Positions 12,753-63,137 of a DNA stretch of 64,000 nucleotides are shown here, piece by piece (position 1 is the first letter of the stretch; each line of letters starts with the position of its first letter). This DNA is from Gammaproteobacteria bacterium (GTDB lineage Bacteria; Pseudomonadota; Gammaproteobacteria; Methylohalomonadales; Methylohalomonadaceae), in NCBI GenBank assembly GCA_040905025.1, contig JBBDSJ010000126.1, forward strand, positions 5,833 through 69,832. The letters are read 5' to 3'. The notes beneath the pieces were generated by a model. That model was not told where the DNA came from, searched no databases, and saw nothing but the letters and a program-made list of their open reading frames with translations. The position numbers and the translations under genes were made by a program.

Positions 12753-12895
12753 GGAAGCTCTGAATAATTCATCCATGAATACTGCATCCTTAGCTTCGTA
12801 ATCAGCACATCCGTGTGCTACTTCTCAGTGCACGAGCAGTGCTACATGGATATAGCGGTTACGTAGCAAAGGACGTAATAAATCAGAGGTTCCTT
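12753..12895. repeat. MITE/REP-like modular repeat, copy A
   Basis: Starts ggaagctctgaataattc and ends aataaatcagaggttcc. Internal modules (gcacgagcagtgc, ctacatggatatag, gcaaaggacg) are shared with copy C. Confidence 0.8.
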
Positions 12896-12907
12896 AATGC
12901 GGCGCAG

Positions 12908-15900
12908 CTAGACACTTTGCAGATTCGCGTACGCCGCCACCAGCCATTTGCTGCCGGCATTTTCGAAATTCACCTGCAGACGCGTTTGTGCGCCGTGGCC
13001 TTCCAGATTCAACACCACGCCTTCACCAAATTTCGCATGACTCACACGCTGACCCAGACGGAACCCCGTTTCTTCTCTTATTGCGGCAGTACTGCGATTG
13101 CTTGCCTGACCACTACTGACATTCGCCCGGCCGGCATGGGGCAACTGACCGCCGAGGCGCACTGCTTCAATGAGTTCTTCCGGAATCTCGCGCAAAAAGC
13201 GTGACGCCGGCGAATAAAAATCCGAGCCATGCATGCGCCGGTGTTCGGCATGCGCCAGTGTCAGACGTTCCTGTGCCCGGGTGATGCCGACATAACACAG
13301 CCGTCGTTCTTCCTCGAGCTGCACCGAATCGGCCAGTGATCGTTGATGCGGGAACAGCCCTTCTTCCATGCCGATCATGAATACAATCGGAAACTCCAGC
13401 CCTTTCGCCGCATGCAACGTCATCAGTTGCACATAATCGCTGCCGGTCGCAGCCTGTTCTTCACCGGACTCAAGTGATGCGTTGGCAAGGAACTGTTGTA
13501 ACGGTGTCATTTCTTCAGCCATGTCGTCCGGCTGCTTGTATTCGCGCATGGCGCGTACCAGCTCTTCCAGGTTTTCGATCCGGTCCTGACCGCGATCGCC
13601 TTTTTCCTTTTTGAAATGCGCAATCAAACCACTGCGGTTGATCGCCGCTTCCATAATCTCGCCGAGCGCGTCATGCTGATTCAGGTTTTTTATATCTTCG
13701 CTTAAATCATAAATAAGTTGCAGAAAACCATGCAGTGCCGACAATGCCCGTGCCGCCAGCATTTTTTCACGCAGTACCTGTTCGGCCGCCTGCCATAAAC
13801 TTAATGATTCCTTGCGTGCCAGATCCCGCAACTCCTGCAGGGTGCGCTGACCGATCCCGCGCGTCGGTATATTTACAATCCGTTCAAATGACGCATCATC
13901 ATTGAAGTTACCGGCCAGCCGTAAATAGGCGAGCGCATCCTTGACTTCGGCACGTTCATAAAAACGCATGCCGCCAAAAATGCGATACGGGATCGCCTGC
14001 CGCACCAGCATTTCCTCGAGCATGCGCGACTGCGCGCTGACGCGATATAAAATGGCCAAGTCACGATACGGCCGGCCACGCGCATGCCAGACTTCAATCT
14101 CGTCAACCACATGCCGGGCTTCGTCCTGCTCGTTATATGCAGTATAGATTTTGATCTTTTCGCCGGTCTCACCTTCCGTCCACAGTTGCTTGCCCAGCCG
14201 GCCACTGTTATTGGCGATCAACGCATTCGCGGCCTTGAGAATTGTGCTGGTAGAACGATAGTTCTGTTCCAGCCGCAGTAACTGTGTATCGGTAAAGTCG
14301 CGTTCAAAACGCTGCATGTTTTCGACTAAAGCTCCTCTCCAACTGTAGATCGAATTATGTGTAACCACACCGTTGGCAATGAAATTATGTGTATTCTGAA
14401 CATTCAAATCATAGACATCTGCTTCCGTGTCCTGATTCTGAACATGCTCAACAACATCGAAATTACCATCAGCAGTGGCCATTACCATGCCCGGGCGGAT
14501 TGCGGCAGCAGTGATAAATGGCAATGATCGGTTCAGGATATGGCCTTGCATGATATAGCGCGAATCATCAAGGCGTTCGCGAATCCGCCGCGCAATTTGC
14601 ATCAGCTCGCCAAAATCACGGCGCACTGTTTCAAAGCGCCAACTATTACTGCCAGTTTTCACTTTACGCACACTTAGCCCCAATGCTTCAAGTTCTGATC
14701 GATCCCTGGCATTAATGCCCGCGACGGAAATTCTATGCATTGGATTCAGACCACGCCGATCACCACACAGGGTAATGACAATATTCCGGCGGTTTGAATT
14801 TCTGGATTGTGGCAGATGGTGCGGGCGTTCCGGGTCGAGACCCACGGATTCCAGCAAGCGCATGGCCGCTTCTGTAGTATCCAACGATGCATATACACGC
14901 TTTATATAAGCGCCATCATGTACCAGACCATTCACGGCCTTGCCCTTGCGCGGCACAAATGGCAGCATCGGCAATCCATAACGCAATGATGTCAGTGTCT
15001 CATCCAGTCTGGCTTCATTTTCAGTTGAGTGTGTACGAATAATCCACAATGCATCGGCGCTTTCCTGTAACGCCCGCTGCTTGAAACCGACTACTGCCTT
15101 TGCCTGACCACGGGTATAGACTTGTGAAGTTCCCAGGCGATAGCCCATACCTTCCTTGTGCATCAAATACAGAAAATAGGTTTGCGGCGCTTCACCCAGT
15201 ACGTAACCGGCAAAATGCGTATGTTCTGGCGTACTTTTCAGCACGGCACCAGAACGTAAATGCAGATGAACCATGCGTCCCTTGCGACGACGTTTGAATG
15301 TTTCCATTACCCGGGCAGATCGGAAATCGCCACTGCCGTAACTGGAGAAAATCTGCTCATCCGTCTGAATCATCTCAATCGGCTTGCTGGAACCATTGGC
15401 CATTTGAATCTGTGTGCCTGCCGCCAGACATTGATCATCATCGCCGACAGCAAACAACGAGCCGGTATTACCGACCAGCAAACGCAGCCAGGCGTATTGC
15501 AATGCATTGGTATCCTGGAATTCATCAACGAGCACATGCCGGAAACGCTGGCGGTAGTGATTCAGGATCGAATCGTTATCACGCAGCAGTTCATGTGCGC
15601 GCAACAACAGTTCGGCAAAGTCCACCAACCCGCCACGATTGCAGGTTTCCTGATAAGCCTGGTAGATACGCACCATTTGCGTAATGGTTGGATCGGCATG
15701 AGCATCAATATGCTGTGGCCTTACACCTTCTTCCTTGCGGGCATTGATATACCACTGGGACTCGCGTGACGGCCATTGCGCCTCATCCAGATTCAAGCCG
15801 CGTAATGTTCTTTTAATCACGCGCAGCTGATCATCGCTGTCAATTATCTGAAAATCCTGCGGCAGACCGGCTTCCTGCCAGTGCGCGCGCAGCAGCCGGT

Positions 15901-16183
15901 GCGCGGTGCCATGAAACGTACCGACCCACATGCCACTAGCTGGCATGCCCAGCAGTTGTTCAGTACGGGCACGCATTTGCGCGGCGGCCTTGTTGGTAAA
16001 TGTGACGGCGAGAATGCCATGCGGACTGGTTTCACCGGTGCGAACATACCAGGCGATGCGATGTACCAGCACCCGGGTTTTGCCACTGCCGGCACCGGCC
16101 AGTACCAGCAGATTGCCGGTCGGCGCGGCTACAGCTTCGCGCTGGGCAGTATTGAGGGGATCAAGTAAATCGGAAACATCCAT
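12908..16183 (-). CDS. uvrD: DNA helicase II UvrD, containing an intein
   Basis: The start MDVSDLLDPLNTAQREAVAAP..LLVLAGAGSGKTRVLVHRIAW closely matches the E. coli UvrD N-terminus as I recall it. VDEFQDTN is present. Motif III VGDDDQ|...|SIYSWRGA is split by 359 codons. Confidence 0.95.
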   Translation of the reverse strand: MDVSDLLDPLNTAQREAVAAPTGNLLVLAGAGSGKTRVLVHRIAWYVRTGETSPHGILAVTFTNKAAAQMRARTEQLLGMPASGMWVGTFHGTAHRLLRAHWQEAGLPQDFQIIDSDDQLRVIKRTLRGLNLDEAQWPSRESQWYINARKEEGVRPQHIDAHADPTITQMVRIYQAYQETCNRGGLVDFAELLLRAHELLRDNDSILNHYRQRFRHVLVDEFQDTNALQYAWLRLLVGNTGSLFAVGDDDQCLAAGTQIQMANGSSKPIEMIQTDEQIFSSYGSGDFRSARVMETFKRRRKGRMVHLHLRSGAVLKSTPEHTHFAGYVLGEAPQTYFLYLMHKEGMGYRLGTSQVYTRGQAKAVVGFKQRALQESADALWIIRTHSTENEARLDETLTSLRYGLPMLPFVPRKGKAVNGLVHDGAYIKRVYASLDTTEAAMRLLESVGLDPERPHHLPQSRNSNRRNIVITLCGDRRGLNPMHRISVAGINARDRSELEALGLSVRKVKTGSNSWRFETVRRDFGELMQIARRIRERLDDSRYIMQGHILNRSLPFITAAAIRPGMVMATADGNFDVVEHVQNQDTEADVYDLNVQNTHNFIANGVVTHNSIYSWRGALVENMQRFERDFTDTQLLRLEQNYRSTSTILKAANALIANNSGRLGKQLWTEGETGEKIKIYTAYNEQDEARHVVDEIEVWHARGRPYRDLAILYRVSAQSRMLEEMLVRQAIPYRIFGGMRFYERAEVKDALAYLRLAGNFNDDASFERIVNIPTRGIGQRTLQELRDLARKESLSLWQAAEQVLREKMLAARALSALHGFLQLIYDLSEDIKNLNQHDALGEIMEAAINRSGLIAHFKKEKGDRGQDRIENLEELVRAMREYKQPDDMAEEMTPLQQFLANASLESGEEQAATGSDYVQLMTLHAAKGLEFPIVFMIGMEEGLFPHQRSLADSVQLEEERRLCYVGITRAQERLTLAHAEHRRMHGSDFYSPASRFLREIPEELIEAVRLGGQLPHAGRANVSSGQASNRSTAAIREETGFRLGQRVSHAKFGEGVVLNLEGHGAQTRLQVNFENAGSKWLVAAYANLQSV
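14354..15430 (-). other. intein (359 codons) inside uvrD
   Basis: Begins CLAAGTQI right after VGDDDQ. It contains TPEHTHF (block B TxxH) and ends VYDLNVQNTHNFIANGVVTHN, followed by +1 Ser (SIYSWRGA). Confidence 0.85.
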
Positions 16184-16321
16184 GGGCGTGGATTGTAACA
16201 AAAGCAAACAGACAATAGATGGTGGATAATGGCAGGCTGTACTTCGCTGTGTTCAGCACGAACTGTTATGCTCGTGCCGCATCGCTCGACAATCTTTTCG
16301 CCATTAACTTGTCTACCAAAC

Positions 16322-17689
16322 ATGACTGACAGCACAACTCTCAAACCCCTGCGTGACCAACCCGGGCATTTGCTCGACCTGCTCGATCTGGTGCTGAATG
16401 AAGCCAAACGCCTCGGCGCGGATGCCGCCGAGGCCGATATCGGCGTCGGCGACGGTCTCAGCGCAACAGTGCGCATGGGCGAGGTTGAAACCCTGGAGCA
16501 TCAACGCGACAAGGGCCTTGGCGTGGTGGTCTACCAGGGTCAACGCAAGGGCAGCGCCAGCAGCAGCGATCTGTCACCTGCTGCATTGACCGAAACCGTC
16601 CAGGCCGCACTGGCTATTGCTGCCCACACTAAACCCGATCCCTGTGCCGGGCTGGCGGATCCGGCGCTGCTGGCCAGCACAATTCCGGATCTGGATCTGT
16701 ACCACCCGTGGCCCATTTCGCCGCAGGACGCAATAGCCAGGGCACTGGCCTGCGAACAGATTGCCCGTGATACTGATGCCCGCATAGTGAATGCCGATGG
16801 CACCACACTGGCGACTGCCAGCGGTGCTCATGTTTATGGCAACAGCCATGGATTTCACGGTTACTGGCAGTATTCGCGCCACAGCCTTGACTGCACAGTG
16901 ATCGCCAAAGACGCCAGCGGCATGCAACGCGATGGCTGGCAAAGTCAGGCGCGGGTGGCCGATGAACTCGACAGTCTCGAGAATATCGGCAAAACCGCCG
17001 CCCGCCGCACGGTCGATCGACTCGGCGCCCGGCGGCTGAATACCCGCAGTGCACCGGTCATTTTCGAGGCGCCGGTGGCCGGCAGCCTGTTCGGGCATCT
17101 GGTCAATGCCCTGTCCGGCGGCAACCTGTACCGCCGCTCGTCGTTTTTGCTCGACCAGGTCGGCGAACAGATTTTCCCGGACTGGCTGCGGGTACATGAA
17201 CAACCGCATCTGCGCCGTGGTCTGCGCAGCGCACCGTTTGATGACGAAGGTGTCGCAACACGGGCGCGTGATCTGGTCACTGCCGGTGTGTTGCAGGGCT
17301 ACGTCCTTGGCAGCTACTCGGCGCGCAAACTCGGACTGCAAACCACCGGCAATGCGGGCGGCGTGCATAATCTGTGTATCGAGCCGGGCTCTGCCAATGC
17401 GGAGCAATACAACCTGCCGGGCCTGCTGAAACTGATGGATACCGGCCTGCTGGTGACTGACCTGATGGGCTTTGGCGTCAACATCATGACGGGCGATTAT
17501 TCGCGTGGTGTTTCCGGCTACTGGGTCGAAAACGGTGAAATTGCCTATCCGGTCGAAGAAATCACCATTGCCGGTAATCTGGCCGACCTGTTCAAGGGTA
17601 TTGTCGCCACCGGCCAGGACATTGATCCACGCCGGAGCACGCGCACCGGTTCGGTGCTCATAGACAAGCTGATGGTTGCCGGTGAATAA
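16322..17689 (+). CDS. pmbA: metalloprotease PmbA/TldE
   Basis: ATG at 16322. LLDLVLNEAKRLGADAAEADIGVGDGLSATVRMGEVETLEH and the C-terminal GDYSRGVSGYWVENGEI are typical of the PmbA/TldD family. Confidence 0.9.
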   Translation: MTDSTTLKPLRDQPGHLLDLLDLVLNEAKRLGADAAEADIGVGDGLSATVRMGEVETLEHQRDKGLGVVVYQGQRKGSASSSDLSPAALTETVQAALAIAAHTKPDPCAGLADPALLASTIPDLDLYHPWPISPQDAIARALACEQIARDTDARIVNADGTTLATASGAHVYGNSHGFHGYWQYSRHSLDCTVIAKDASGMQRDGWQSQARVADELDSLENIGKTAARRTVDRLGARRLNTRSAPVIFEAPVAGSLFGHLVNALSGGNLYRRSSFLLDQVGEQIFPDWLRVHEQPHLRRGLRSAPFDDEGVATRARDLVTAGVLQGYVLGSYSARKLGLQTTGNAGGVHNLCIEPGSANAEQYNLPGLLKLMDTGLLVTDLMGFGVNIMTGDYSRGVSGYWVENGEIAYPVEEITIAGNLADLFKGIVATGQDIDPRRSTRTGSVLIDKLMVAGE

Positions 17690-17761
17690 CGCTAAATCAT
17701 TGCGATAGCCTGACTTACATGGCAATCTCGAAACACAACTAATAGAAACCCCCAGAGACGT

Positions 17762-18715
17762 ATGAGCATTCCACAGCAACAGGCTCGCAATCACACCGCC
17801 AGGGACGAACTCGCCGGGGTCCTTGCCGAAGCTACGCAAATTATTCTTGGCAAAGAACATGTCGTACGGCTGGCGTTGACCTGCCTGATTGGCCGCGGCC
17901 ATTTGCTGATCGAAGACCAGCCCGGGGTCGGCAAAACCACACTCGCGCATCTGCTGGCACGTGTCTTTGGCCTGTCGTTTCAGCGTATCCAGTTCACCAG
18001 CGATTTATTGCCTGCCGACATCCTCGGTGTCTCGATTTACGACCGTGACAATGCCGGCTTTACATTCCATCCCGGGCCGATTTTCGCGCAGGTTATTCTT
18101 GCCGACGAAGTCAATCGCGCCACACCGCGTACGCAAAGCGCGTTGCTCGAAGCGATGGAAGAAAACCAGGTGACCATTGAAGGCCAGACCCGGCCACTGC
18201 CGAAACCGTTTTTCGTCATCGCCACGCAGAACCCGATGAACCAGATCGGTACTTTCCCGTTACCCGAATCACAACTGGACCGGTTCCTGATGCGCATCGA
18301 ACTCGGCTACCCGGATGCAAAGGCCGAACGCGAATTGCTGGCGGGGCGGGACCGGCGCGAACTGCTCGCCGATCTGCAACCGTTACTTATACCGGAACGT
18401 CTGATCATGCTGCAGAAGCAGGCCCAGGCCATCCATGTCGCACCGGCGCTGCTTGATTATCTTCAGGATCTGCTCGAATACAGCCGCCAGTCCGGCCGCT
18501 ACCTGCACGGTCTGTCGCCACGCGCCGGACTCGCCGTGTTACGTGCCGCCCAGGCCTGGTCATTGTTGCATGGCCATGACGCCGTATTACCTGAAGATAT
18601 CCAGGCCATTCTGCCGAGCGTCATCGGCCATCGCCTGCAACCGCGCGATGAGCAACGCAACCATGCGCCGGTCGAGCTGGCCCGGGATCTGATTAAACAG
18701 GTACCAATCCCCTGA
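17762..18715 (+). CDS. MoxR-family AAA+ ATPase
   Basis: 317 aa. Walker A is EDQPGVGKT and Walker B is ILADEVNRA. IATQNP and the LSPRA motif are typical of MoxR. Confidence 0.9.
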   Translation: MSIPQQQARNHTARDELAGVLAEATQIILGKEHVVRLALTCLIGRGHLLIEDQPGVGKTTLAHLLARVFGLSFQRIQFTSDLLPADILGVSIYDRDNAGFTFHPGPIFAQVILADEVNRATPRTQSALLEAMEENQVTIEGQTRPLPKPFFVIATQNPMNQIGTFPLPESQLDRFLMRIELGYPDAKAERELLAGRDRRELLADLQPLLIPERLIMLQKQAQAIHVAPALLDYLQDLLEYSRQSGRYLHGLSPRAGLAVLRAAQAWSLLHGHDAVLPEDIQAILPSVIGHRLQPRDEQRNHAPVELARDLIKQVPIP

Positions 18716-18737
18716 TCGGCGCTGCTGTCATATTGCG

Positions 18738-19685
18738 GTGAATACACAAGTCGCTGATCTGTCAGTAGCTGGACAAACCACATTGACCCGGCGCCGGGTC
18801 TATATCCTGCCTACCGCGGCCGGCATGCTTTTCGTTGTGACGTTGATCGTGATGCTGCTCGGGGCAATCAACTATGACAACAGCCTGGCCTATGTACTGA
18901 CCTTTCTGGTCGCCAGCCTGTTATTGCCGGCCATTTTGCATACCTACCGTAACCTCAAGGATTTGCGCGTTTCCGCCGGCCCGCCGGCTGCCGTATTTGC
19001 CGGCGACAACGCGTATTTCCCGGTGACGCTGGATAATCGCCCGCGTGCTGCCGGCAACCTGGCCGGCCGGCCGCGTTATGCACTGGAACTGCAATGTGGC
19101 CGCCGCAATGCGGCAGTCAATGTGCCGCAACTGACTGCCGAACTGAAAACCGTCGCGGTTCCCGCTGCCAGTGTTCGCCGTGGTTATCTGAAGCTTGGGC
19201 GCGTACGCATCAGCAGCCGGTTTCCGCTGGGTTTGTTCCGGGCCTGGTCGTATTGCCGCAGCGATCAACTCGCCGCGATTTATCCCAAACCTGCCGGCCC
19301 ACTGTCGTTGCCAGCACCCAGCGCCTGGAATGCCGAAGATCAACTTGGTATGACGGCGGGCGCCGAGGATTTTGTCGGCTTTCGCAATTATCATCCGGGT
19401 GATTCCATCCGCAGCATTGCCTGGAAAGCCGTCGCACGTGGCCAACCGATTGTCGTCAAGCGATTCAGTGGGGGTGGCGCGCAGCGATTGATTCTGGCCT
19501 GGGAACATACGACGGCAGTTGGCGATGTCGAATCGCGCTTAAGTCAATTGTGCCGCTGGATTATTGCGGCCGAAGACCAGGGCCTGCGTTATGGCCTGCA
19601 GTTACCCGGCATACAAATCGAACCGGACCATGGCCCGGCGCACCGGCATCGCTGTCTGCTCGCATTGACCGAGTTTGATTTGTAG
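18738..19685 (+). CDS. DUF58 domain protein (MoxR partner)
   Basis: 315 aa with two N-terminal TM helices. FVGFRNYHPGDSIRSIAWKA matches the DUF58 signature. It sits directly after moxR. Confidence 0.8.
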   Translation: MNTQVADLSVAGQTTLTRRRVYILPTAAGMLFVVTLIVMLLGAINYDNSLAYVLTFLVASLLLPAILHTYRNLKDLRVSAGPPAAVFAGDNAYFPVTLDNRPRAAGNLAGRPRYALELQCGRRNAAVNVPQLTAELKTVAVPAASVRRGYLKLGRVRISSRFPLGLFRAWSYCRSDQLAAIYPKPAGPLSLPAPSAWNAEDQLGMTAGAEDFVGFRNYHPGDSIRSIAWKAVARGQPIVVKRFSGGGAQRLILAWEHTTAVGDVESRLSQLCRWIIAAEDQGLRYGLQLPGIQIEPDHGPAHRHRCLLALTEFDL

Positions 19686-19706
19686 TAAAAATTCATTGCT
19701 GCCGCC

Positions 19707-21704
19707 ATGCTGAAATTCCGCACCACACCCAAACCGCCACTGGTACGCGTTGCCTTGCTGTGGCTGGCGCTGGCGCTGACATTGGCAGTCGTCGCCCAGT
19801 TCCCGCACACCCCGGTCTGGGTACCGGCCGCCTGCCTGCTGTTACTCGGCTGGAAACTGTTACTGGTTTTCTGGCCACCGCTTAAACGCCTGCAATCAGC
19901 CGCCATTATCCGGTTGCTGCATAACATGCTGGCATTGCTGCTCATCATTGGTGTGTACATGAATTTCGGTACACTGCTCGGCCGCGATGCCGGCGTGGCA
20001 TTGTTGATCGTACTGACCGGTTTCAAGTTTCTGGAAGCGCATACCACCCGTGATCAATATGTCACCACGGCGCTGGCACTGTTTTTGATCGTTACCCACT
20101 TCTTTTATTCACAGACATTGTTGACGGGCGGCTGGATGCTGGTTGTTGTGCTGCTGCTGGTCACAACGCTGGTCAGTCTGAACGATCCGTATCAGGTACT
20201 ACCGGTACGTCAGAAAATGAAACTCAGCGGCATGCTGATTGCGCAGGCACTGCCATTAATGCTGATTGCTTTTGTATTTTTTCCGCGCGCACCCGGCCCA
20301 CTCTGGGGTTTGCCGGATGACGCGCACAGCGGTATGACCGGCCTCAGTGATGAAATGGTGCCCGGCAGTATCAGCCAGCTCGGCCAGTCTGATGAAGTCG
20401 CATTCCGGGTAGAGTTTCGCGACGTCGTACCGGAAAAGTCCGAGCTTTACTGGCGCGGACCTGTACTCTGGGATACCGATGGCCGCAAGTGGACACGTGG
20501 CCAAAGCCGCATCAAGGGACTGGCAGAAATTCATAACCAGGGCATTCCGGTCAGTTACAGCATCACCATTGAACCACACGACGAACAATGGATTTTCGCA
20601 CTCGATATGCCGGAAAAAGCCCCTGACGGTACCCGGCTGACACGTGATTTTCAGATGCTGGCGGACAAACCGATCCGCAGGCGCGACCGTTACGATCTGG
20701 TTGCGTTTCCCGACTACACCACCAGCGGCGCCGATCCGGCTGACTTCGAACGCGCACTGGCACTGCCAGCCAACCGCCATCCGCGTGCCGTCGCACTTGG
20801 CAAACGCTGGCGTGAGAATAATCCTGATATCGAGAGTATTGTCGACAAGGCGCTGACACTGTTTCGTGAACAGGAGTTTTTTTACACGTTGGCGCCGCCA
20901 CTGATGACCGACGATCCAGTTGACGAGTTTCTGTTCGACATACGCGAAGGATTCTGTGAGCACTACGCGGCAGCACTCACGATCCTGATGCGTGCGGCCG
21001 GTATTCCGGCGCGTGTAGTAACCGGCTATCAGGGCGGTCAGATTAATCCGGTCGGCGACTACCTGATCGTGCGGCAATATGACGCGCATGCCTGGGTCGA
21101 AATCTGGCAGGATGATCAGGGCTGGCAACGCGTCGATCCAACGGCGGCCGTATCACCGGCACGCATTCGCAGCGGCATCAGTAGCGCATTACCGGACAAT
21201 CTTATTGATGTGCCGTTGGGCTTGTCGCGCGGTTCGTTTGCGGCTGAATTGTTGCAGCAATTGCGCGATAACTGGGATGCCGTCAACAATCAGTGGAACC
21301 AGTGGGTGCTGGGTTACAGCCAGTCACGGCAACTGGAATTGCTCGGCAAAATCGGGATCGGCAACGGTGGTTGGCGCGAACTCGCCACCTGGCTGGCCGG
21401 TATTATTGCGACACTATTCATATTGCTGGCGCTGAGTCTGCTGCGGCCGCAATCACGGCAACTGGATCAGGCCCGGCGCTATTACGAACAATTCTGCAAA
21501 AAACTCGCCCGTCACGGTATTCAACGCTACAGTCATGAAGGCCCGCGCGATTTCGCCCGGCGCGCAATAACAGATATCGGCCAACAGTCTGGCAGCATCG
21601 AAGAGATTACCGATCGTTACATTGAAGTCCGTTATCTCGGTCATACTGACAAACTGCATTCCCTGCGTGATGCCGTGAAACGTTTCAGTCCGTCACGCCA
21701 ATAA
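19707..21704 (+). CDS. transglutaminase-like membrane protein (TgpA-like)
   Basis: 665 aa. It has an N-terminal multi-TM region and a transglutaminase core (EGFCEHYAAALTILMRAAGIPARVVTGY ... DAHAWVE), plus a C-terminal TM. Confidence 0.85.
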   Translation: MLKFRTTPKPPLVRVALLWLALALTLAVVAQFPHTPVWVPAACLLLLGWKLLLVFWPPLKRLQSAAIIRLLHNMLALLLIIGVYMNFGTLLGRDAGVALLIVLTGFKFLEAHTTRDQYVTTALALFLIVTHFFYSQTLLTGGWMLVVVLLLVTTLVSLNDPYQVLPVRQKMKLSGMLIAQALPLMLIAFVFFPRAPGPLWGLPDDAHSGMTGLSDEMVPGSISQLGQSDEVAFRVEFRDVVPEKSELYWRGPVLWDTDGRKWTRGQSRIKGLAEIHNQGIPVSYSITIEPHDEQWIFALDMPEKAPDGTRLTRDFQMLADKPIRRRDRYDLVAFPDYTTSGADPADFERALALPANRHPRAVALGKRWRENNPDIESIVDKALTLFREQEFFYTLAPPLMTDDPVDEFLFDIREGFCEHYAAALTILMRAAGIPARVVTGYQGGQINPVGDYLIVRQYDAHAWVEIWQDDQGWQRVDPTAAVSPARIRSGISSALPDNLIDVPLGLSRGSFAAELLQQLRDNWDAVNNQWNQWVLGYSQSRQLELLGKIGIGNGGWRELATWLAGIIATLFILLALSLLRPQSRQLDQARRYYEQFCKKLARHGIQRYSHEGPRDFARRAITDIGQQSGSIEEITDRYIEVRYLGHTDKLHSLRDAVKRFSPSRQ

Positions 21705-21715
21705 ACTAAATTCAT

Positions 21716-21752
21716 ACCCCCTCCCCTCGTGGGAGGGGGTTAGGGGGAGGGT
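21716..21752 (+). repeat. C-run/G-run hairpin followed by a G-tract block
   Basis: accccctccc ctcgt gggagggggt forms a 10-bp stem. It continues as ttagggggaggg. The G-rich half resembles the 3' half of the element at 45406-45470. Confidence 0.5.
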
Positions 21753-21776
21753 GTCTATCTTTAAGACCATTTCCAG

Positions 21777-21846
21777 GGAAGCTCTGGGCAGTGGCGCATG
21801 GATGCGCCGGTTACGAAACCAAAGGACGTAATAAATCAGAGGTTCC
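21777..21846. repeat. MITE/REP-like modular repeat, copy B (short)
   Basis: ggaagctctgggcagtggcgcatggatgcgccggttacgaaaccaaaggacgtaataaatcagaggttcc. Its internal module is the reverse complement of the one in copy D. Confidence 0.8.
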
Positions 21847-21876
21847 CTAACAACAAGCCGGCATTCAGGACTAACT

Positions 21877-25819: not shown

Positions 25820-26014
25820 GGAAGCTCTGAATAATTCCTTCCTGGAATTCTCAGAGCACGAGCAGTGCTACATGGATGTAGCGGTCACGTAGCAAAGGAC
25901 GCAACATCGAAAATGTGATTTTTGTATTTCTTCATTTTTCAATCACTTGTGTGATTGAAAAATGGCGGCACTTCCTTGTGCCGCAGGAACCTCTAAATTA
26001 ATCAGAGGTTCCTT
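25820..26014. repeat. MITE/REP-like modular repeat, copy C (long)
   Basis: Starts ggaagctctgaataattc. It carries the modules of copy A plus the cgaaaat and ttcaatcacttgtgtgattgaa hairpins. It ends ggaacctctaaattaatcagaggttcc. Confidence 0.8.
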
Positions 26015-26040: not shown

Positions 26041-26060
26041 GAAGAACCTCTGATTAATTA
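26041..26060. repeat. solo terminal half-site of the repeat family
   Basis: gaagaacctctgattaatta matches the family end sequence without a partner end nearby. Confidence 0.5.
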
Positions 26061-26310: not shown

Positions 26311-26450
26311 GGAACCTCTGATTAATTACGTCCTTTGGTTTCGTAACCGGCGCATCCATGCGCCACTGCCCAGTGGTTCCTGCGGTACACGGATGTGCTG
26401 CTTACCGAGCTAAGGATGCATAATTCCAGGGTGGAATTATTCAAAGCTTC
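26311..26450. repeat. MITE/REP-like modular repeat, copy D (inverted relative to A/B)
   Basis: Starts ggaacctctgattaattacgtcctttgg and ends gaattattcaaagcttc. It contains the reverse complement of the copy B module. Confidence 0.8.
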
Positions 26451-26544
26451 TTTAGTTATGACAGTACGTACCGTTGCTGCAACAACCTCTTTATTGATCA
26501 TCAGGTTCCTTAACCTGAGACGGATCACACGGATAAACCAGCTT

Positions 26545-31000: not shown

Positions 31001-31155
31001 AAGAAAGCTCTGATTAATTCATCCGTGAATTCTCAGAGCACGAAAATCGAAAATTCTTATTTTCGATTTTCTTCATTTCTCAACCACTTAAGTGGTTGAG
31101 AAATGACAATACATCCATGTACTGCAGGAACCTCTGAATAAATCAGAGGTTCCTT
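31001..31155. repeat. MITE/REP-like modular repeat, copy E
   Basis: Runs from aagaaagctctgattaattc to ggaacctctgaataaatcagaggttcc. Internal hairpins are aaaatcgaaaattcttattttcgatttt and tctcaaccacttaagtggttgaga. It is the near reverse complement of copy G. Confidence 0.85.
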
Positions 31156-43255: not shown

Positions 43256-43684
43256 GGCTCATTGAAAATCTGTCAATAACTTTGGCTTCTAAACCTGCCT
43301 GTATCAGTAAAACCGATCCCAACTTGTATGGCTAATAACGCTCGCGGGAATGAACGTATACGCGCCAAATTATCGAGTATCAAATCCGTAGCATACGCTT
43401 GAGTTGTCAGTCAGTCACCGCCAGTGCATTCGAGTTTGGAGTAGAATAGTTCGCTGCCCTCTGCTAGGCAAACCTCTGCAGGATATAAAGGCTTCATATC
43501 ATTTATAAACCGCTTCTTGCGAGTCAGTCTGACGGCAATTTTTCACGGTCAGTATCTGCTGTTTATCGTCATCAAGCCCGTTTCAGAAATTGAAAACCGG
43601 AATGCTACTGACCCAATCACTGAATTAATCAGAGACCCCCGAACAGGCATTTAAAAACAGGCTTTTCTGTCATGAAGCACGTGA

Positions 43685-45351: not shown

Positions 45352-45378
45352 GGAAGCTCTGATTAAATCAGAGGTTCC
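45352..45378. repeat. minimal copy F of the MITE/REP-like family (ends only)
   Basis: ggaagctctgattaaatcagaggttcc: the two family ends abut and form a 13-bp hairpin with one G-G mismatch. Confidence 0.8.
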
Positions 45379-55785: not shown

Positions 55786-55814
55786 AGCCCCGCCTCGTGC
55801 GGGGCTATTTTTTT
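55786..55814 (+). terminator. rho-independent terminator
   Basis: agccccgc ctcgt gcggggct followed by attttttt. Confidence 0.8.
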
Positions 55815-55853
55815 ATCTCCACACAACCCATTCGGTTGTGACAGCTTTCATAA

Positions 55854-56611
55854 TCATTCACGCAGTTTCAGGATAACCAGCAATACCAATAAATAGAGTG
55901 CCAGCAAAGGACAGATTAGTATCAACCAGATAGGCCAAAGATTACTGCCTGCCATTAACGCGAAAATACTCACCATGATCAATACCACAAACACAAAGAG
56001 CGGCCATGTCACCAGCAAGCCATGTGACTTGCGGAATCGGGCCCAGGCGATCACCTGTAATACCAGGTAGGCAGGAAGCCCCAAACTAATGACCAGGCCC
56101 AACAAAAAATCTCCAGACCCCTGTTCTTCAGCATAACACTGGCGCGCCTGTTCATTCAGTTGCTCGTGTTCAGCGCGCAAACGCGCTATCCAGTCAGGTG
56201 ATGACTGCGACGAACCTGATGCTGTCGTTGTCCATTCAATCGATACGGGGTAACTCAGTAATACCGATTCCTGATAGCGGTCATCGCGCTTGAAACCGGC
56301 TTTGATTCGGATCTCGTCCACCTGACCTGCAGTTTGTCCAAAAACCAGCCATACGTCTCGCCGGATCCGGCTGGCAACATGGGTGATGGATTTGGGCCAA
56401 ATCCGGCTGCCGGCTGATTCTGGTAGTACGGTCGCACCCGGATATTCAGTGGCACATCAGACTGATAAGCGAGATGCACATAGTAGGATTCATTCACTTT
56501 CAATGGACTGTCTTGTGGATGTGTGGCCAGAACCTCCGCCTGCATGGCCTGAACGACAGGGCTCATCAGCATTGACAATATCAGTGCAATATCTCTTGTT
56601 TTCGCATGCAT
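55854..56611 (-). pseudogene. hypothetical secreted/membrane protein split into two overlapping frames (56255-56611 and 55854-56321)
   Basis: The upstream ORF has a signal peptide. The downstream ORF starts only with GTG inside the overlap and ends in 3-4 TM helices. The frames could be joined near 56320-56340. Confidence 0.45.
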
Positions 56612-56718
56612 ACGCTATACCTGACATGGTAGTGAACTTGTTTTACTGTACAGCCCGCCCCAAACAAATCCTGGCGCGGCAATTATACTGACAGTAATCC
56701 CGTGTTCTTCAGGGCTTC

Positions 56719-57114
56719 ATGTCAGAGCCAAATCATGGAATACTTCAATTCTTTACAACCAGATTAAATGCTGCCATGCAAGAACTCTATCAAGCGGTTC
56801 ATGAGCATCCTGATTTCAAATCCTTACAAATGGCGCGTAGTCGTCTGAGCTGGATACTGACGTTTGCAGTGCTCGCCGGTTATCTCAGCTTTGTTCTGAT
56901 TATTGCATTTGCACCAGAACTGTTTGCAGCACCCATCAGCACCAACAGTACCACCAGCTGGGGCATACCGGTCGGCCTGTTTGTAATCGTCTACAGCTTC
57001 CTGCTTACCGGTATTTATGTGCATCAGTCCAATGCACATTTTGATCCCGAGCTAAAGCGGATTATCGATGAAGTCCGTACCGGCAGTGAAACACTCAGGG
57101 TACCGCCGCAATGA
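56719..57114 (+). CDS. yjcH: DUF485 inner-membrane protein (YjcH-like)
   Basis: 131 aa with two TM helices. It is immediately upstream of actP and overlaps it (ATGA at 57111). Confidence 0.85.
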
Positions 57115-58763
57115 TTCGATTCCAGTGGTTAACCCTGATTTTTCTGCTGGCAGTATCACCATACGGCCTTGCAGACAACCTTGAAGACGTTGCACATGAA
57201 GCCAATCTTACAGCAATTGCGATGTTTGCCCTGTTTGTGTTTGCAACGATGGGTATTACCTGGTGGGCGGCGCGCCGGGTCAAGACAACAAGCGATTTTT
57301 ACGCGGCCGGTGGCAATATTACCGGTTTGCAAAATGGCCTGGCCATTTCCGGTGATTTCATGTCGGCGGCTTCATTTCTTGGCATTTCAGCTCTGGTTTT
57401 TACCAGCGGCTTTGACGGCCTGATTTATTCCATCGGCTTTCTGGTCGGCTGGCCGATTATTCTGTTTTTGCTGGCAGAGCGCCTGCGTAATCTTGGTAAA
57501 TACACGTTTGCCGATGCTGTTTCGTTTCGACTCGCCGCGCTGCCCATCCGCAGCCTCGCGGCCTGCGGCACACTGGCTGTCGTATTATTATATTTAATCG
57601 CACAGTTGGTCGGTGCCGGTCAGCTGATTCAGGTACTGTTTGGTTTGCCATATCACTATGCAGTGTTTCTGGTAGGCGTACTGATGATTCTTTATGTCAC
57701 ATTCGGCGGCATGCTGGCGACCACCTGGGTTCAGATTATCAAGGCTGTATTATTATTGTCCGGCGCCACATTCATGTCCATTGCTGTACTGGCCAAATTT
57801 GGTTTCTCGTTTGAGCTGCTGTTCCGGACTGCAGTCGATGTACATCCGGAGGGCTTTAGCATCATGGCGCCCGGTGGCCTGGTCACCGATCCGGTTTCGG
57901 CAATTTCGCTCGGACTGGCGCTAATGTTTGGTACCGCCGGACTACCGCATATATTGATGCGATTCTTTACGGTATCCGATGCCCGTGAAGCACGCCGGTC
58001 AGTATTTTTTGCGACCGGCTTCATCGGCTATTTTTATATCCTGACTTTCGTGATTGGCTTTGGCGCCATCATTCTAGTCGGCACTGATCCTGCCTATCGA
58101 AACATGGCCGGTGGGCTTATTGGTGGCAGCAATATGGCGGCAGTTCATCTGGCACATGCTGTCGGCGGCGATGTATTTCTGGGTTTCATTTCGGCAGTTG
58201 CGTTTGCCACCATTCTGGCAGTGGTATCTGGCCTGACGTTGTCCGGCGCATCCGCCTTGTCACATGATCTTTATGCGAGTGTTATCAAAAAAGGTCATGC
58301 CGGTGAGCGCGAGGAAGTGCTGGTATCACGTTGCGCAACCATTGGTCTGGGTATTATTGCCATTTTGCTCGGGATTTTATTTCAGCAACAAAATGTCGCC
58401 TATATGGTCGGACTGGCTTTTGCTATTGCCGCGAGTGTCAATTTTCCCATCCTGCTGTTATCCATGTACTGGCGCGGCCTGACCACCCGGGGTGCCACAG
58501 CAGGCGGTGCAATCGGTTTACTGACTGCGGTTGGCATGATGCTGTTGGGGCCGACAATCTGGGTCGACATCCTCGGTAACGCCGAAGCCATCGTACCCTA
58601 TAAACACCCGGCATTGTTCTCCATGACCGCCGCATTTGTGAGTATCTGGCTGATATCCAAGCTGGACAAGAGTCCACGTGCGATGGAAGAACGCAAAGCT
58701 TTCCACTGGCAGTACCTGCGTTCACAAACAGGGCTGGGCGCATCAACGGCAGCAAAACATTGA
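57111..58763 (+). CDS. actP: cation/acetate symporter ActP (SSS family)
   Basis: 550 aa with ~14 TM helices. The pairing with yjcH and the N-terminal periplasmic leader are typical of ActP. Confidence 0.9.
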
Positions 58764-58830
58764 TACGTGCATATTATTTTTGTTTTCGCATGTAAATCAA
58801 CGGCAGTAAACCAAGTCAGGCGATACTGAC

Positions 58831-59253
58831 TTATCGAGAGGATTCCTGACGTCCGGATTCAAGCAAATCCCTGATTTCAGTAAGCAGCTTTTCCTCATTG
58901 CTCGGCACATCTGGCGCAGTCTCCTGCTTCACCTCTTCCTTGCGCTGCAGCTGATTAATAATTTTCACCGCAACAAATATTGCCAATCCAATGATCAGAA
59001 AATCAATTATATTCTGTATAAACGCGCCATAGTTCAATGTTACTGCAGCCACTTCGCCATGAGCTTCTTTCAACACCAAAACCAGATCTCCAAAATGCAC
59101 ACCGCCAATCAATACTCCGAGCGGCGGCATGACTACATCATTAACAAAAGATGAAATTACTTTCCCAAATGCGACACCCATAATAATTCCAACAGCCATA
59201 TCCATGACATTACCGCGCACTACAAATGATTTGAATTCATTAATCAATGTCAT
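58831..59253 (-). CDS. mscL: large-conductance mechanosensitive channel
   Basis: 140 aa. The hallmark N-terminus is [41 protein letters not shown]. Confidence 0.95.
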
Positions 59254-59292
59254 TGTTAATACCTTTTGTTATTCTGACCGGAAATCACAAAC

Positions 59293-60018
59293 TTAATCTT
59301 CCAGATAATATTCAATCGTCGAAACTACGCGTACAGTTTTCTCAACCTGACTGTTTTCATCTATGCCGGGAGATCGATCCCGTGGCAGAATGACAAACAC
59401 CCCCTGATTCGCCTGGCGAATGCCGCCAAGTTTACTATTGGAATCGTTGGCAAACTGTTCAGCGGCAGCACGCGCACTCGCAGTCGCCTCGGCAATCATG
59501 TCAGGCTTGTAGTCATCCAGTCGATTAAACAGGTAGGTAGGGCCGGATTGGTAGCCACTTTCATCCGAAAGCACAACACCGGACTCCACCAACTCACTGA
59601 TATTCTGACTCGCCACCTGTATCAACTCGGGTTGATCGGTTCGTACCCGCAGGGTTTGCGCGATGATATAGCGGCTGTCATAAGGCCCACTGCGCCAGGG
59701 ATTGGCGACCATATCAGTCACTTCCAGCCGCTGCACCCGAATCGTGTCCGGAGGGATACCATTCAAGGTGAGAAATGCCCGCACCGTCTCGCGGCTTTTA
59801 TTGATAGCTGCCTGCGCACTTGCCAGATCATTATCGGCCGCAACATATCGCAATGACCACAGGCCGATGTCGGCGGTTACGTCACGCTCTGAAATACCCT
59901 TGACAGTAACAAAGCGATCACTGGCGCGTCCTTTTTGAAAGCCGTCACCCACAAACCAGCCTGACAGGGCAATGCCAAAGGCAAGTAATAGTGCCGGCAC
60001 CCAGAGATAACGCTGCAT
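59293..60018 (-). CDS. SIMPL/DUF541 domain periplasmic protein
   Basis: 241 aa with an N-terminal anchor. The pattern VTVKGISERDVTADIGLW... is typical of the YggE/SIMPL family. Confidence 0.75.
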   Translation of the reverse strand: MQRYLWVPALLLAFGIALSGWFVGDGFQKGRASDRFVTVKGISERDVTADIGLWSLRYVAADNDLASAQAAINKSRETVRAFLTLNGIPPDTIRVQRLEVTDMVANPWRSGPYDSRYIIAQTLRVRTDQPELIQVASQNISELVESGVVLSDESGYQSGPTYLFNRLDDYKPDMIAEATASARAAAEQFANDSNSKLGGIRQANQGVFVILPRDRSPGIDENSQVEKTVRVVSTIEYYLED

Positions 60019-60129
60019 ATTGCTTGCCTCTACAGGTTAAGATGGAGTTAATTAATAGCTACAGCCTAACTTGCTATGCTTTTAACCGGGCGTCAACAAA
60101 AAAAATGCTGATTTGAGTAACCCTAAGCA

Positions 60130-61857
60130 ATGATCCGTTTTAACCGAATTTTTGATGGCAATAGTCCGGCCGAACAACAACGTCTGGCACAGGTACAAGC
60201 CCTGTTTCAGAAATTATTTCCACGTGAGGACGAATATGCCGGACAGCTGGCGCGGGAATTGGCGGAACGCCGCTCGACCGGTTTTGAGCCCATCCTGTTA
60301 ACAGCAACCAATGCACATAGTCAACTGCTTGGATTTGCACAATTTTATTATTTCCCCGGCAGCCGTCTGGGTTACCTCAATTACATCGGCAGCGATCAGA
60401 TGCACTCGCGGCGGGGTATTGGCAAGGCATTATACGAAAGTGCGCGCGAGTATCTGCGTGAGCGTGACGCCCTGGGACTATTGCTGGAAATTCCGCCAGA
60501 TGATGCCAATCAGGTCAGTGAATCGGAACGTCTGAAAGACAATAAAACACGCGCACGTTTCTACGAGAGTTTTGATGCGCGACCAATCATCAATACTGGC
60601 TGGCAGCACCCACCCATCGCCTGGGATTATGACCCGCCGTGGCTTGTATATGATTCACTTGGCAGTAACAAACCGTTGCGCCGGCGAGCACTGCGCAATG
60701 GTATGCGTGATATTCTGCAGTATCGCTATCATTTGCAACCGGATACTGAATTCGTCAAAGCACTGCAGGACTCGGTACAGGACGATCCTGTCCGCTTACG
60801 GCCACCACGCTATCAAACCCGGCAACTACCGGTGCCGGCCTGGCACGGCAAACTCAAACACATCAAGCTGCTGGCATCAACACATCATGAAATTCATCAT
60901 GTCCGGCAACAGGGTTATGTCGAACGCCCGGCACGGGTCGATGCGATCCTGCGCGGCCTGGCCGATCTACCGGTTGAAAAGCTGCCGGTACGTCATTACG
61001 GCGAAGACATTCTGCGGGCCGTGCATGCCAGTGATTACGTCAGCTATCTAAAACGTGCAACCTCGGCGCTGGACGCCAGAACTACAATCTACCCGCAAGT
61101 GTTTCCGATACGACGTCCGGACAACCGGCCTCGTGATATGGCTATTCGTGCCGGATATTATTGTATTGATACATTCACCCCGTTATCGCAAGCCGCCTAC
61201 AAAGCAGCACGCGCGGCGGCTGATTGTGCTGCCAGTGGTGCTGAGCTGCTATTGGATGGCGAGCAATTTGTTTATGCCTTGTGCCGCCCACCCGGCCATC
61301 ATGCTGAACACCGCGCCTACGGTGGCTTTTGTTATTTCAACAATGCCGCGATTGCGGCACACAAACTCAGCAAGACCGGCCGCGTAGCATTACTTGATAT
61401 TGATTATCATGCCGGTAACGGTCAGCAACAAATCTTTTATCAGCGCAATGATGTATTCACATTATCACTGCACGGCCGACCCCGGGATCACTATCCCTAC
61501 TTTGCCGGGTTCGCAGATGAAAAGGGCGCAGACGCAGGACTCGGCTTTAACCGTAATTTCCCATTGGCCGATATGCTCGGTGATGCCACCTATCTGACAG
61601 CCCTGAGCAAGGCAATAAAACTGATCAGAGACTTCAAACCACACTGGCTGGTAGTTGCACTGGGTTATGACGGTATGCGCGGCGATCCGACCGGAAATTT
61701 TGATTTGTCAGCAACCGGCCTGCGTGACATCGGCGCAGCAGTTGCGACACTGGAATTACCCACGCTGGTTATACAGGAGGGCGGTTATGTTCTTGCCAAC
61801 CTGCGCCACGGAGCGCGCAGTTTTTTTACTGGCCTGATTCAACGCTGGTATCGCTGA
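60130..61857 (+). CDS. fusion protein: N-terminal GNAT-like acetyltransferase domain + C-terminal histone-deacetylase-family (arginase-fold) deacetylase
   Basis: 575 aa. GNAT motif A is like HSRRGIGKALYESAREYL. The HDAC core has RPPGHHAEHRAYGGFCYFNNAAIAA, DIDYHAGNGQQQIF and GYDGMRGDP. Confidence 0.8.
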   Translation: MIRFNRIFDGNSPAEQQRLAQVQALFQKLFPREDEYAGQLARELAERRSTGFEPILLTATNAHSQLLGFAQFYYFPGSRLGYLNYIGSDQMHSRRGIGKALYESAREYLRERDALGLLLEIPPDDANQVSESERLKDNKTRARFYESFDARPIINTGWQHPPIAWDYDPPWLVYDSLGSNKPLRRRALRNGMRDILQYRYHLQPDTEFVKALQDSVQDDPVRLRPPRYQTRQLPVPAWHGKLKHIKLLASTHHEIHHVRQQGYVERPARVDAILRGLADLPVEKLPVRHYGEDILRAVHASDYVSYLKRATSALDARTTIYPQVFPIRRPDNRPRDMAIRAGYYCIDTFTPLSQAAYKAARAAADCAASGAELLLDGEQFVYALCRPPGHHAEHRAYGGFCYFNNAAIAAHKLSKTGRVALLDIDYHAGNGQQQIFYQRNDVFTLSLHGRPRDHYPYFAGFADEKGADAGLGFNRNFPLADMLGDATYLTALSKAIKLIRDFKPHWLVVALGYDGMRGDPTGNFDLSATGLRDIGAAVATLELPTLVIQEGGYVLANLRHGARSFFTGLIQRWYR

Positions 61858-61910
61858 ACCGCTTATTGTCTATACAGTCTTATAATGCACAAAAATGATG
61901 GGATTAACTA

Positions 61911-62465
61911 ATGTGTAATGGAAATGTTCAGGTTTCAAAGTTCTCACTGCGCGCTGCGCTGGCTACATTAAGCATGTGCCTGTTAAGCGCCTGCCAGACG
62001 ACCCGGTCCATGCCGACGGTTGATTATGTCGATATGAATAAATTTATGGGCGACTGGTACGTGATTGCACATATTCCGGCGTGGATTGAGCGCAATGCCT
62101 ATAATGCTGTCGAGTCTTATGAAATGACCGGGGACGGCACCATCGAAACTACTTACAGATTCAATAATGGCAGCTTTGATGGTGATCAAAAAATTATGAG
62201 ACCGAAAGGCTGGGTTGTAAATGAAGAGACCAATGCTGAATGGGTCATGCAGTTCATCTGGCCCATTAAGGCGGAATATCTCATTATTTATCTGGATGAG
62301 GACTACTCGAAAACCATCGTCGGGCGCAGCAAACGTGATTATCTCTGGATCATGGCACGCGAACCAAAACTGACGGGCAGCGAATATCAGGAATTGGTTA
62401 CATTTGCTGAAAGACAGGGCTACGATATTAGCGAATTACGGAAAGTACCCCAGCAGGTAAAATGA
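61911..62465 (+). CDS. blc: bacterial lipocalin (Blc-like outer-membrane lipoprotein)
   Basis: The lipobox is LLSAC. The lipocalin signature is FMGDWYVIAHIP, and IVGRSKRDYLWIMAR is present. Confidence 0.9.
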   Translation: MCNGNVQVSKFSLRAALATLSMCLLSACQTTRSMPTVDYVDMNKFMGDWYVIAHIPAWIERNAYNAVESYEMTGDGTIETTYRFNNGSFDGDQKIMRPKGWVVNEETNAEWVMQFIWPIKAEYLIIYLDEDYSKTIVGRSKRDYLWIMAREPKLTGSEYQELVTFAERQGYDISELRKVPQQVK

Positions 62466-62480
62466 TCAGAAAAACAGCGG

Positions 62481-62526
62481 GCATGTGCGGCGATCTCCCT
62501 GTTTAATCAGGGGTCACCGCACATGC
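62481..62526. terminator. long hairpin between convergent genes (terminator-like, no U-run)
   Basis: gcatgtgcggcga ... tcaccgcacatgc forms a 13-bp stem with one mismatch. An inner ccct/aggg pairing is also possible. Confidence 0.4.
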
Positions 62527-62534
62527 ATTACCGA

Positions 62535-62825
62535 TTACTGCTTGAATCGCGTCCAGGCTTTTTCCATACCATCTTTCATATCATTGAATGCTGCCTCAGC
62601 ACGCGACTGCATGTCTTTCCAGGCGCCCTCGTTACTTTGTTGCAGTTCTTTCATCGCCTTGTAAGCTTCTTCCCGCTGGCTACGAAGTTGCTCCAGCTGA
62701 CTCTCAAGATTCTGTTTGGCATCAGCACTGGCCTTCTCCATCTGCGCCTCCATCTTGTCAAGCTCGGCATTCCATTCGTCAATTTGTGCTTTCAGTTTTT
62801 GTACATATGCGTCACGTTCACTCAT
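62535..62825 (-). CDS. hypothetical coiled-coil protein
   Basis: ATG at 62825 is preceded by AGGAGA. The 96 aa are highly charged with heptad-like periodicity (MSERDAYVQKLKAQIDEWNAELDKMEAQ...). Confidence 0.65.
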   Translation of the reverse strand: MSERDAYVQKLKAQIDEWNAELDKMEAQMEKASADAKQNLESQLEQLRSQREEAYKAMKELQQSNEGAWKDMQSRAEAAFNDMKDGMEKAWTRFKQ

Positions 62826-62986
62826 TTCATTCTCCTGTGCAGTGAAGTTGAAAATAGTGGTCACCAGGAAAGCTGGCAACCATACACAAGTTAATAATCA
62901 ATCAGGGGGCATCCTGAACAAAAGATCAACCAGCTAATCTGTATAACTATACATAACAAATAACTATGCACAACAATAACATTTAA

Positions 62987-63137
62987 GGAACCTCTGAATA
63001 AATCAGAGGTTCCTGCAGTACAGGGATGTACTGCCATTATTCAATCACTTAAGTGATTGAATAATGAAGAAAATCGAAAATCATAATTTTCAATTTTCGT
63101 GCTCTGATAATTCATGAATGAATTAATCAGAGCTTCC
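62987..63137. repeat. MITE/REP-like modular repeat, copy G (inverted relative to E)
   Basis: Runs from ggaacctctgaataaatcagaggttcc to gaattaatcagagcttcc. It has the same module order as the reverse complement of copy E. Confidence 0.85.

Follow-up and report, generated by a model that had tools for sequence, protein, structure and literature searches.

The insertion sequence (IS) IS5 of Escherichia coli has a terminal repeat beginning GGAAG/GGAAC...GAATAA and makes a 4-bp duplication at a YTAR-like target. Correia elements of Neisseria (Correia repeat enclosed elements, CREE, or Neisseria miniature insertion sequences, NEMIS) duplicate TA, and we know of no parent IS that has been established for them. 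Bacterial interspersed mosaic elements (BIMEs) are built of repetitive extragenic palindromes (REPs), which are spread by REP-associated tyrosine transposases (RAYTs) and leave no target duplication. The small dispersed repeats (SDRs) of heterocystous cyanobacteria, reportedly described by Elhai et al. in Genome Research in 2008, are said to be tens of bases long, to form hairpins and to lie nested in other repeats or in transposable elements of the miniature inverted-repeat type (MITEs). The IS5-derived MITEPsy1 of Pseudomonas syringae pv. phaseolicola is 100 nt long and present in few copies, has the ends GGAAGGTCTGAAAAAGCC, duplicates 4 nt at CTAG or YTAA targets, and has been caught transposing experimentally (PMC3189936). 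In this study, we analysed a family of short hairpin-rich repeats in a 64,000-nt stretch of gammaproteobacterial DNA (hereafter, the window) and in the metagenome-assembled genome (MAG) from which it comes. The family is very probably a non-autonomous MITE of the IS5 group, IS5 family, which a nested cassette entered later. IS5-type MITEs are an ordinary class, and this result places the family among known elements; the novelty of this genome lies in a 42-bp cassette nested at four fixed, orientation-consistent sites.

Abundance, ends and target duplications

The assembly searched (labelled G000) comprises 2.51 Mb in 151 contigs with 52.9% G+C, and the window is C126:5833-69832 of it. Allowing at most one mismatch, the end motif GGAAGCTCTGA has 15 matches in the window and its partner motif TCAGAGGTTCC has 18, compared with 0.74 and 0.54 in shuffles, and the observed counts of both 11-mers were reached by none of 100 shuffles. 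A genome-wide search for the ends, proposed in an earlier note on this DNA, gave 116 exact matches to GGAA[G/C]CTCTGA versus about 1 in a shuffled genome; the family is therefore not restricted to the window. Nor is its interior fixed. Pairing of the ends over the 2.5 Mb yielded 58 elements, with an estimated 60-100 copies overall, and their lengths are discrete: 27, 70, about 141, 151, 193, 235 and 278-281 bp. These elements of 27-281 bp contain no open reading frame (ORF). All seven copies that the earlier note had listed were recovered with boundaries shifted by 1-3 bases, and its statement that all are intergenic holds for the window, with no copy in the genome lying inside a long ORF. One of the two solo ends it had reported was also recovered (Table 1), and the other, at about 43622-43637, is a weak half-match only (GAATTAATCAGAG).

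The elements are bounded by terminal inverted repeats (TIRs) of 16 bp, GGAAGCTCTGAWTAAT ... ATWTATCAGAGGTTCC, with the consensus GGAA[G/C]CTCTGAWTAAT. A G/C asymmetry between the outer ends, previously thought to be invariably conserved, is seen in most copies of this and other genomes, but not in every copy. The 4-bp flanks are identical in 24 of the 58 copies and differ by one base or less in 45, whereas controls offset by 4-16 bp gave 0-1 and 1-7 of 58, respectively. Since non-palindromic flanks are among the matching pairs (TTAT/TTAT in six copies, ATAA/ATAA, CTAA/CTAA, TTAG/TTAG and TTGA/TTGA), the duplications are direct and are not extensions of the inverted repeats. The flanking TTA/TTT mentioned in the earlier note is thus real and resolves into 4-bp direct target duplications. 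Stand-alone 27-mers, consisting of the two ends only, have identical 4-bp flanks in 11 of 50 cases versus 0 in the control, and examples of target duplications in other genomes include CTAA, TTAA, TTAT, TTAG and TTGA.

Comparison of insertion sites with relatives, likewise suggested earlier, yielded a clean empty site. At locus L194 of the related MAG GCA_040905125.1, which is 90-96% identical around the site, the sequence reads ATCAGAACATTAATGCTGCG, with a single TTAA and no element. Its counterpart in the window is ATCAGAAAATTAT [141-bp element 12753-12893] TTAATGCGGCG, i.e. TTAT-[141 bp]-TTAA, and the BLAST segments of L194 against the window overlap by 3 nt at this point. The lone TTAA of L194 stands exactly where the window carries its 12753-12893 copy.

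The ends of the MITE, GGAACCTCTGA, are common to it and to IS5/InsH-type elements of other host genomes. In one such genome (G018, locus L152), an IS5/InsH-like element of 719 bp, internally deleted, has the ends GGAACCTCTGAACAAG and GGAACCTCTGCATAAG and shows CTAA duplicated. In Halothiobacillus MAGs that host the MITE, IS5-type copies start with GGAACCTCTGATTGAAT after CTAG (L155 and L161), and L154 has a 1207-bp IS flanked by duplicated CTAG, with the ends GGAAATGCTGAATAATTCAC. Position 5 of the left end is G in the MITE only, the IS copies seen carrying C at both ends. An 838-bp IS adjoining MITE copies in another genome (G044) has other ends (AGAACCTATCTCAAAAT) and was rejected as unrelated. 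The earlier note had left the choice between a non-autonomous mobile family and a REP/BIME-like one; the TIRs, target duplications, empty site and matching IS speak for the MITE, and the REP/BIME half of that proposal falls. We infer that an IS5/InsH-type DDE transposase would recognise the 16-bp ends and, acting in trans, would insert the MITE at TTAA/YTAR-like tetranucleotides, duplicating them.

The five-hairpin core and its 42-bp cassette

The 151-bp unit is made of five consecutive hairpins, H1 to H5 (Table 1), and the 27-bp palindrome of H5 also occurs alone as the ends-only element. The ends-only copy in the window folds at -9.5 kcal/mol (z = -6.7) and is kept in the 98.4%-identical relative GCA_040880265.1. 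When 25 diverse copies, drawn from many genomes, were aligned, 22 of the 47 consensus pairs showed double compensatory changes and one-sided changes of the G-U type were very few, showing that the stems are under constraint as Watson-Crick palindromes. The loops, CATCC/GGATG, are conserved across genomes on these covarying stems and, judging from the alignment, are constrained as sequence (CATCC..TG). The five-hairpin interior has been kept across many gammaproteobacterial families by compensatory change of a strictly Watson-Crick kind and is not filler; the constraint is probably one on the DNA, and may serve transposition itself.

The core is widespread. Its cassette-free form of about 151 bp occurs in >50 other genomes, where full copies are nearly all 149-153 bp long with the same five hairpins, and a few have small insertions of their own or an 84-bp H2-H3 deletion. 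The 27-bp palindrome is found patchily in 8 of 41 relatives (55 copies in G018 and 20 in G034); three sampled members of the same family hold 0, 0 and 1, and two other families are rich in copies. It is also present in >113 stretches of gammaproteobacterial MAGs, including Halothiobacillus, Dyella, Lysobacterales, Methylococcales, Chromatiales and others. Such patchiness is consistent with the family having travelled horizontally together with an IS. Many contigs of G018 begin inside the MITE and have the palindrome 96-101 bases from the contig end (e.g. C22:96-122 and C45:96-122), and two contigs of the relatives, L195 and L192, stop exactly at MITE sites of the window, indicating that the family breaks short-read assemblies.

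The size steps in this genome (27 to 70 bp; 151 to 193, 235 and 278-281 bp) correspond to the presence or absence of one type of 42-bp cassette, which reads G-N-AGTG, then a hairpin topped by CAYGGATG, then CGGTNACG-N6-AAGGAYG-NAAT. Using nhmmer, 94 cassette copies were found in the genome, nearly all in four contexts with fixed orientation: beside H1 (site A), at either foot of H2 (sites B and B') and at the centre of H5 (site C). The feet at B and B' mirror each other in the H2 palindrome, where the cassette is oriented by the arm; at all sites its orientation follows the strand of a shared target, GA^AAAT, GA^ATAA or GAG^AATT. All site combinations occur in both core subfamilies except B with B', and no element carrying all four cassettes was seen. 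The hairpin modules that the earlier note had described are thus real and resolve into the five core hairpins and this one cassette type; what it had called a mix-and-match interior is a constant set of core hairpins, varied by cassettes at four sites and by a few recombinational deletions. Some copies are indeed deletions by recombination between similar hairpins. In the 12753 copy a site-B cassette abuts the right end, and this copy looks like a recombinant of site-B and site-C cassettes that has lost H2-H4, the 26311 copy joins H4 to a site-A cassette, and further deletion forms measure 134 and 219 bp.

Outside this genome the cassette is rare. It was found in 0 of 127 MITE loci of other genomes, and a pattern search of 401 genomes of the class gave 60 matches in G000, 7 in one genome and 1 each in five genomes. 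Where it lies outside the MITE, in those genomes and here (C98:22640-22800 and C51:2134), its context is GTCATnCC-hairpin-GGAGy / cassette / ATCCAG. These units, GTCATnCC-hairpin-...ATCCAG, form a second abundant hairpin-repeat family in the genome, often in tandem (C141:1-170, C105, C73, C110, C63 and C98:22640-22800), which holds the same cassette at C98, in two tandem 82-bp units, and at C51:2134. Besides, a different module, of about 49 bp but with the same CATGGATG hairpin top as the cassette (GACCGCCATGGATGGCGGAAGTGCAGAAAATGCAGGAGCAATTTTCTGC), occurs once outside MITEs here (C132:16195), and in another genome (L110 6329-6528) it sits at site B inside a five-hairpin MITE.

Our conclusion is that the 151-bp unit without cassettes came first and that the cassettes were added later. 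Most likely, a separate and very small insertion element entered the MITE at four sites, and the cassette-bearing forms would then have been reshuffled by recombination between MITE copies. The reverse history is unlikely, i.e. that a four-cassette ancestor of about 320 bp gave rise to the shorter forms by deletion or recombination between similar hairpins, with the cassette having no independent existence. It would account for the recombinant deletion forms (the 141-bp, 26311-26452, 134-bp and 219-bp elements) and for a cassette variant that differs site by site. It is at odds with the occurrence of the cassette-free unit of about 150 bp in >50 other genomes and of the cassette in none of the 127 loci there, with the cassettes residing in other repeats here and elsewhere, and with the orientation of the B and B' cassettes by the H2 arm, which indicates targeted insertion and not internal duplication; nor does the four-cassette element it starts from occur among the elements seen.

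Several observations weigh against an IS5-group MITE with a later cassette. A query with the IS5/InsH N-terminus gave 0 matches in this genome, and neither of two PF01609 transposases on C93 has matching ends within 4 mismatches. A search for the parent IS from solo ends and contig ends returned only MITE fragments or the second, unrelated repeat family. The idea of an IS or RAYT with matching ends, raised in the earlier note, is borne out by the IS5-type elements of other hosts, and this genome yielded neither an IS nor a RAYT with such ends. The MAG is incomplete, and multicopy IS are often missing from assemblies of this kind. With no matching transposase assembled, the copies are non-autonomous as assembled, being either relics or dependent on an IS that is unassembled or lost, and current mobility in this genome is unproven. 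Just one clean empty site was obtained. As for the cassette, TIRs are lacking and no target duplication is clear, its sequence variant differs from site to site, and the identity of cassettes compared across the two core subfamilies (0.94) does not clearly exceed that within a subfamily (0.94). The site variants fit one old insertion per site, followed by amplification and recombination, equally well as ongoing mobility, and the possession of a distinct variant by each site favours a few old events.

How the cassette came in may be narrowed down from its structure. Lacking inverted ends and a clear duplication, it is unlikely to have used a DDE mechanism, and we infer that the pattern would suit an enzyme whose substrate is hairpins of single-stranded DNA. 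Three other derivations were rejected: an inverted duplication of H4, whose flanks do not match; a TIR element, for want of inverted ends; and, for B', an inversion of B together with H2, as the orientation of the H2 loop is unchanged. We tentatively raise the possibility, doubtful as it is, that the cassette is an autonomous non-coding hairpin unit, inserted in a site- and orientation-specific manner at A/T-rich hairpin feet (GA^AAAT), probably with the help of a host- or IS-encoded enzyme for single-stranded DNA, such as a Y1/HUH protein. If true, this would explain how it colonised this MITE as well as a hairpin-repeat family unrelated to it, and the conserved ACAYGGAUGU loop with the downstream AAGGA could make multi-cassette MITE transcripts decoys for CsrA. 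A self-moving cassette would be among the smallest known mobile units of Proteobacteria and a tractable case for studying the mode of insertion. Lying inside a MITE at four strand-consistent sites, and also in unrelated repeats, the cassette represents a second layer of parasitism or modularity.

Table 1. Copies of the family in the window, and the hairpins and cassettes of which they are composed. Copy flanks are given as left/right; empty targets are read in the cassette's own orientation.
Feature	Position	Strand	Sequence or arrangement	Flanks or empty target
Derivative copy, 141 bp	12753-12893	+	left end and H1, site-A cassette (~12781-12823, reverse orientation), CTCAGTGCACGA, second cassette (12836-12879) joined directly to right end	TTAT (12749-12752)/TTAA (12894-12897)
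70-bp form	21777-21846	+	27-bp ends-only palindrome with one cassette centrally (~21787-21832, site C)	
Copy of 193 bp	25820-26012	+	151-bp core with site-B cassette (25862-25905)	TTAT/TTAC
Solo end fragment	26043-26058	-	GAAGAACCTCTGATTAAT	
Rearranged copy, 142 bp	26311-26452	- (reverse orientation)	right end, site-C cassette (~26325-26369), H4/site-A-cassette hybrid hairpin (26384-26426), H1, left end (degenerate, AGAAGCTTTGAATAAT)	TCAG/TTAG
151-bp core copy	31003-31153	+	five hairpins, no cassette	TTAA/TTTA
Ends-only palindrome, 27 bp	45352-45378	.	GGAAGCTCTGATTAAATCAGAGGTTCC, two inverted repeats abutted	
151-bp core copy	62987-63137	- (reverse orientation)		TTAA/TTAA
H1			GCTCTGA-AATTCATCCATGAATT-TCAGAGC	
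H2			AAAATCGAAAAT..ATTTTCGATTTT	
H3			TTTTTCAATCAC..GTGATTGAAAAA	
H4			GCAGTACATCCATGTACTGC	
H5			GGAACCTCTGA-ATAAA-TCAGAGGTTCC, both ends of the element itself as a full inverted pair	
Site A cassette (beside H1)			GGAGTGGCACACGGATGTGCCGCTAACGGAGCCAAGGATGCAGT, reverse complement	CTCTGAG^AATTCATGG
Site B cassette (H2 foot)			GCAGTGCTACATGGATGTAGCGGTCACGTAGCAAAGGACGCAAT	GCACGA^AAATCGAAAAT
Site B' cassette (other H2 foot)			GAAGTGCTACATGGATGTAGCGGTTACGAACCTAAGGATGGAAT, reverse complement	TGAAGA^AAATCGAAAATC
Site C cassette (H5 centre)			GGCAGTGGCGCATGGATGCGCCGGTTACGAAACCAAAGGACGTAAT	CTCTGA^ATAAATCAGAG

Other roles of the hairpins and the surrounding DNA

The elements or cassettes might instead be kept as RNA, transcribed copies titrating CsrA or altering the fate of neighbouring mRNAs. 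The CsrA consensus obtained by systematic evolution of ligands by exponential enrichment (SELEX) is RUACARGGAUGU, and the hairpin tops ACAYGGAUGU, which a second AAGGA follows some 20 nt downstream, look like CsrA/RsmA sites of high affinity. Hairpins of the form stem-CA-N-GGATG-stem number 115 versus 1 for a control motif, a CsrA gene is located at C72:4065-4223, and the conservation of CATCC/GGATG loops on covarying stems across genomes would also suit an RNA. However, the orientation relative to flanking genes shows no bias here (9 co-oriented and 11 anti-oriented) and only a weak one in other genomes (6 and 16, respectively), and hairpins with GGA loops are found on both strands of one element. 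The near absence of G-U intermediates points to a constraint on DNA or on both strands, not on one RNA, and a search of the whole window against Rfam at the gathering score gave 0 matches. Taken together, we regard an RNA role as improbable. A role as terminator or 3'-untranslated region was rejected as well: the gene pairs flanking the copies may be convergent (5 in this genome), divergent (8) or tandem (20), without orientation bias.

That the hairpins are REP units, spread on single-stranded DNA by a RAYT (Y1/HUH) and clustered into BIME-like mosaics, is scarcely credible, for although the interior is dense in hairpins whose stems contain GTAG/CTAC (CTACATGGATGTAG) and whose strictly Watson-Crick pairing suits DNA hairpins, and although Y1_Tnp proteins are encoded in the genome, arrays of an unrelated REP of its own (GTAGGAGCCTGGCTTGCCAGGCGAAC) border the RAYT at C125:1624-2148, the 16-bp TIRs, 4-bp direct duplications and single-TTAA empty site are hallmarks of DDE transposition, REPs having neither TIRs nor duplication, and the same ends are carried by IS5-type IS. 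The RAYT region itself (C125:1450-2600) contains a classical RAYT gene, a 175-aa frame with the HUH motif, and GTAGGAGCCTGGCTTGCCAGGCGAAC arrays on both sides, and constitutes a third, separate repeat system of the genome. A Y1_Tnp protein that is IS200-like and 291 aa long (C132:12307-13179) is single copy and has a long C-terminal extension, and the sequences beside its gene do not recur in the genome.

An IS5-group MITE thus remains the preferred reading, and its copies in the window lie close to DNA that varies between relatives. In GCA_040880265.1 (L176, JBBDIS010000137.1; 98.4% identical), the island that holds three of the window copies is replaced: the segment 25508-31174 of the window, from a ParA-like gene to hemY, is represented there by a 6.9-kb block with DndB and an N6/N4 methylase and no MITE copies. 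In the window, MITE copies lie near both borders of this segment, and the family delimits a variable island there. In contig L192 (92% identical), the stretch 21777-21846 is absent along with about 70 bp of adjoining sequence; missing with this 70-bp element is the stretch just upstream of it, 21705-21776, in which a C/G-run hairpin, CCCCCTCCCCTCGTGGGAGGGGGTTAGGGGGAGGG, is located. Further, uvrD of GCA_040905125.1 is without the insert of about 1.08 kb, a putative intein, found at 14348-15429 of the window, positions 2268-2274 of L194 joining 14347 to 15430, which indicates that the putative intein is polymorphic between relatives.

Relation to described elements

A search of papers by the end sequences returned only primers in unrelated papers, and in a limited keyword search the family was not described. 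Its nearest counterpart is MITEPsy1 with ISPsy2: both families are non-autonomous, have IS5-type, non-identical ends (GGAAGGTCTGAAAAAGCC in MITEPsy1 and GGAAGCTCTGAATAAT here) and a 4-nt duplication, and presumably rely for their movement on an IS5-family transposase acting in trans. Unlike MITEPsy1, the family described here is a 151-bp unit of five hairpins in about 60-100 copies that is known from sequence alone, to which a 27-bp ends-only form and nested 42-bp cassettes are added, and its parent IS is missing from the assembly. With the IS5 group as a whole it shares the start of the terminal repeat and the YTAR-like 4-bp duplication, but the MITE has no transposase gene and its interior is unrelated to that of the IS.

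Like Correia elements and the mosaics of enterobacterial repetitive intergenic consensus (ERIC) sequences and BIMEs, elements of 100-150 bp, the family is abundant and intergenic, has inverted-repeat ends and the potential to form hairpins, and has discrete length variants that arise through internal insertions and deletions; its sequences are unrelated to theirs, and it makes a 4-bp duplication. The cassette in turn resembles the SDRs, whose nesting implies mobility, in being very small, hairpin-forming, nested and non-coding. It differs from them in host phylum and in sequence, and in being a 42-bp unit that occupies four fixed, orientation-specific sites within one MITE family.

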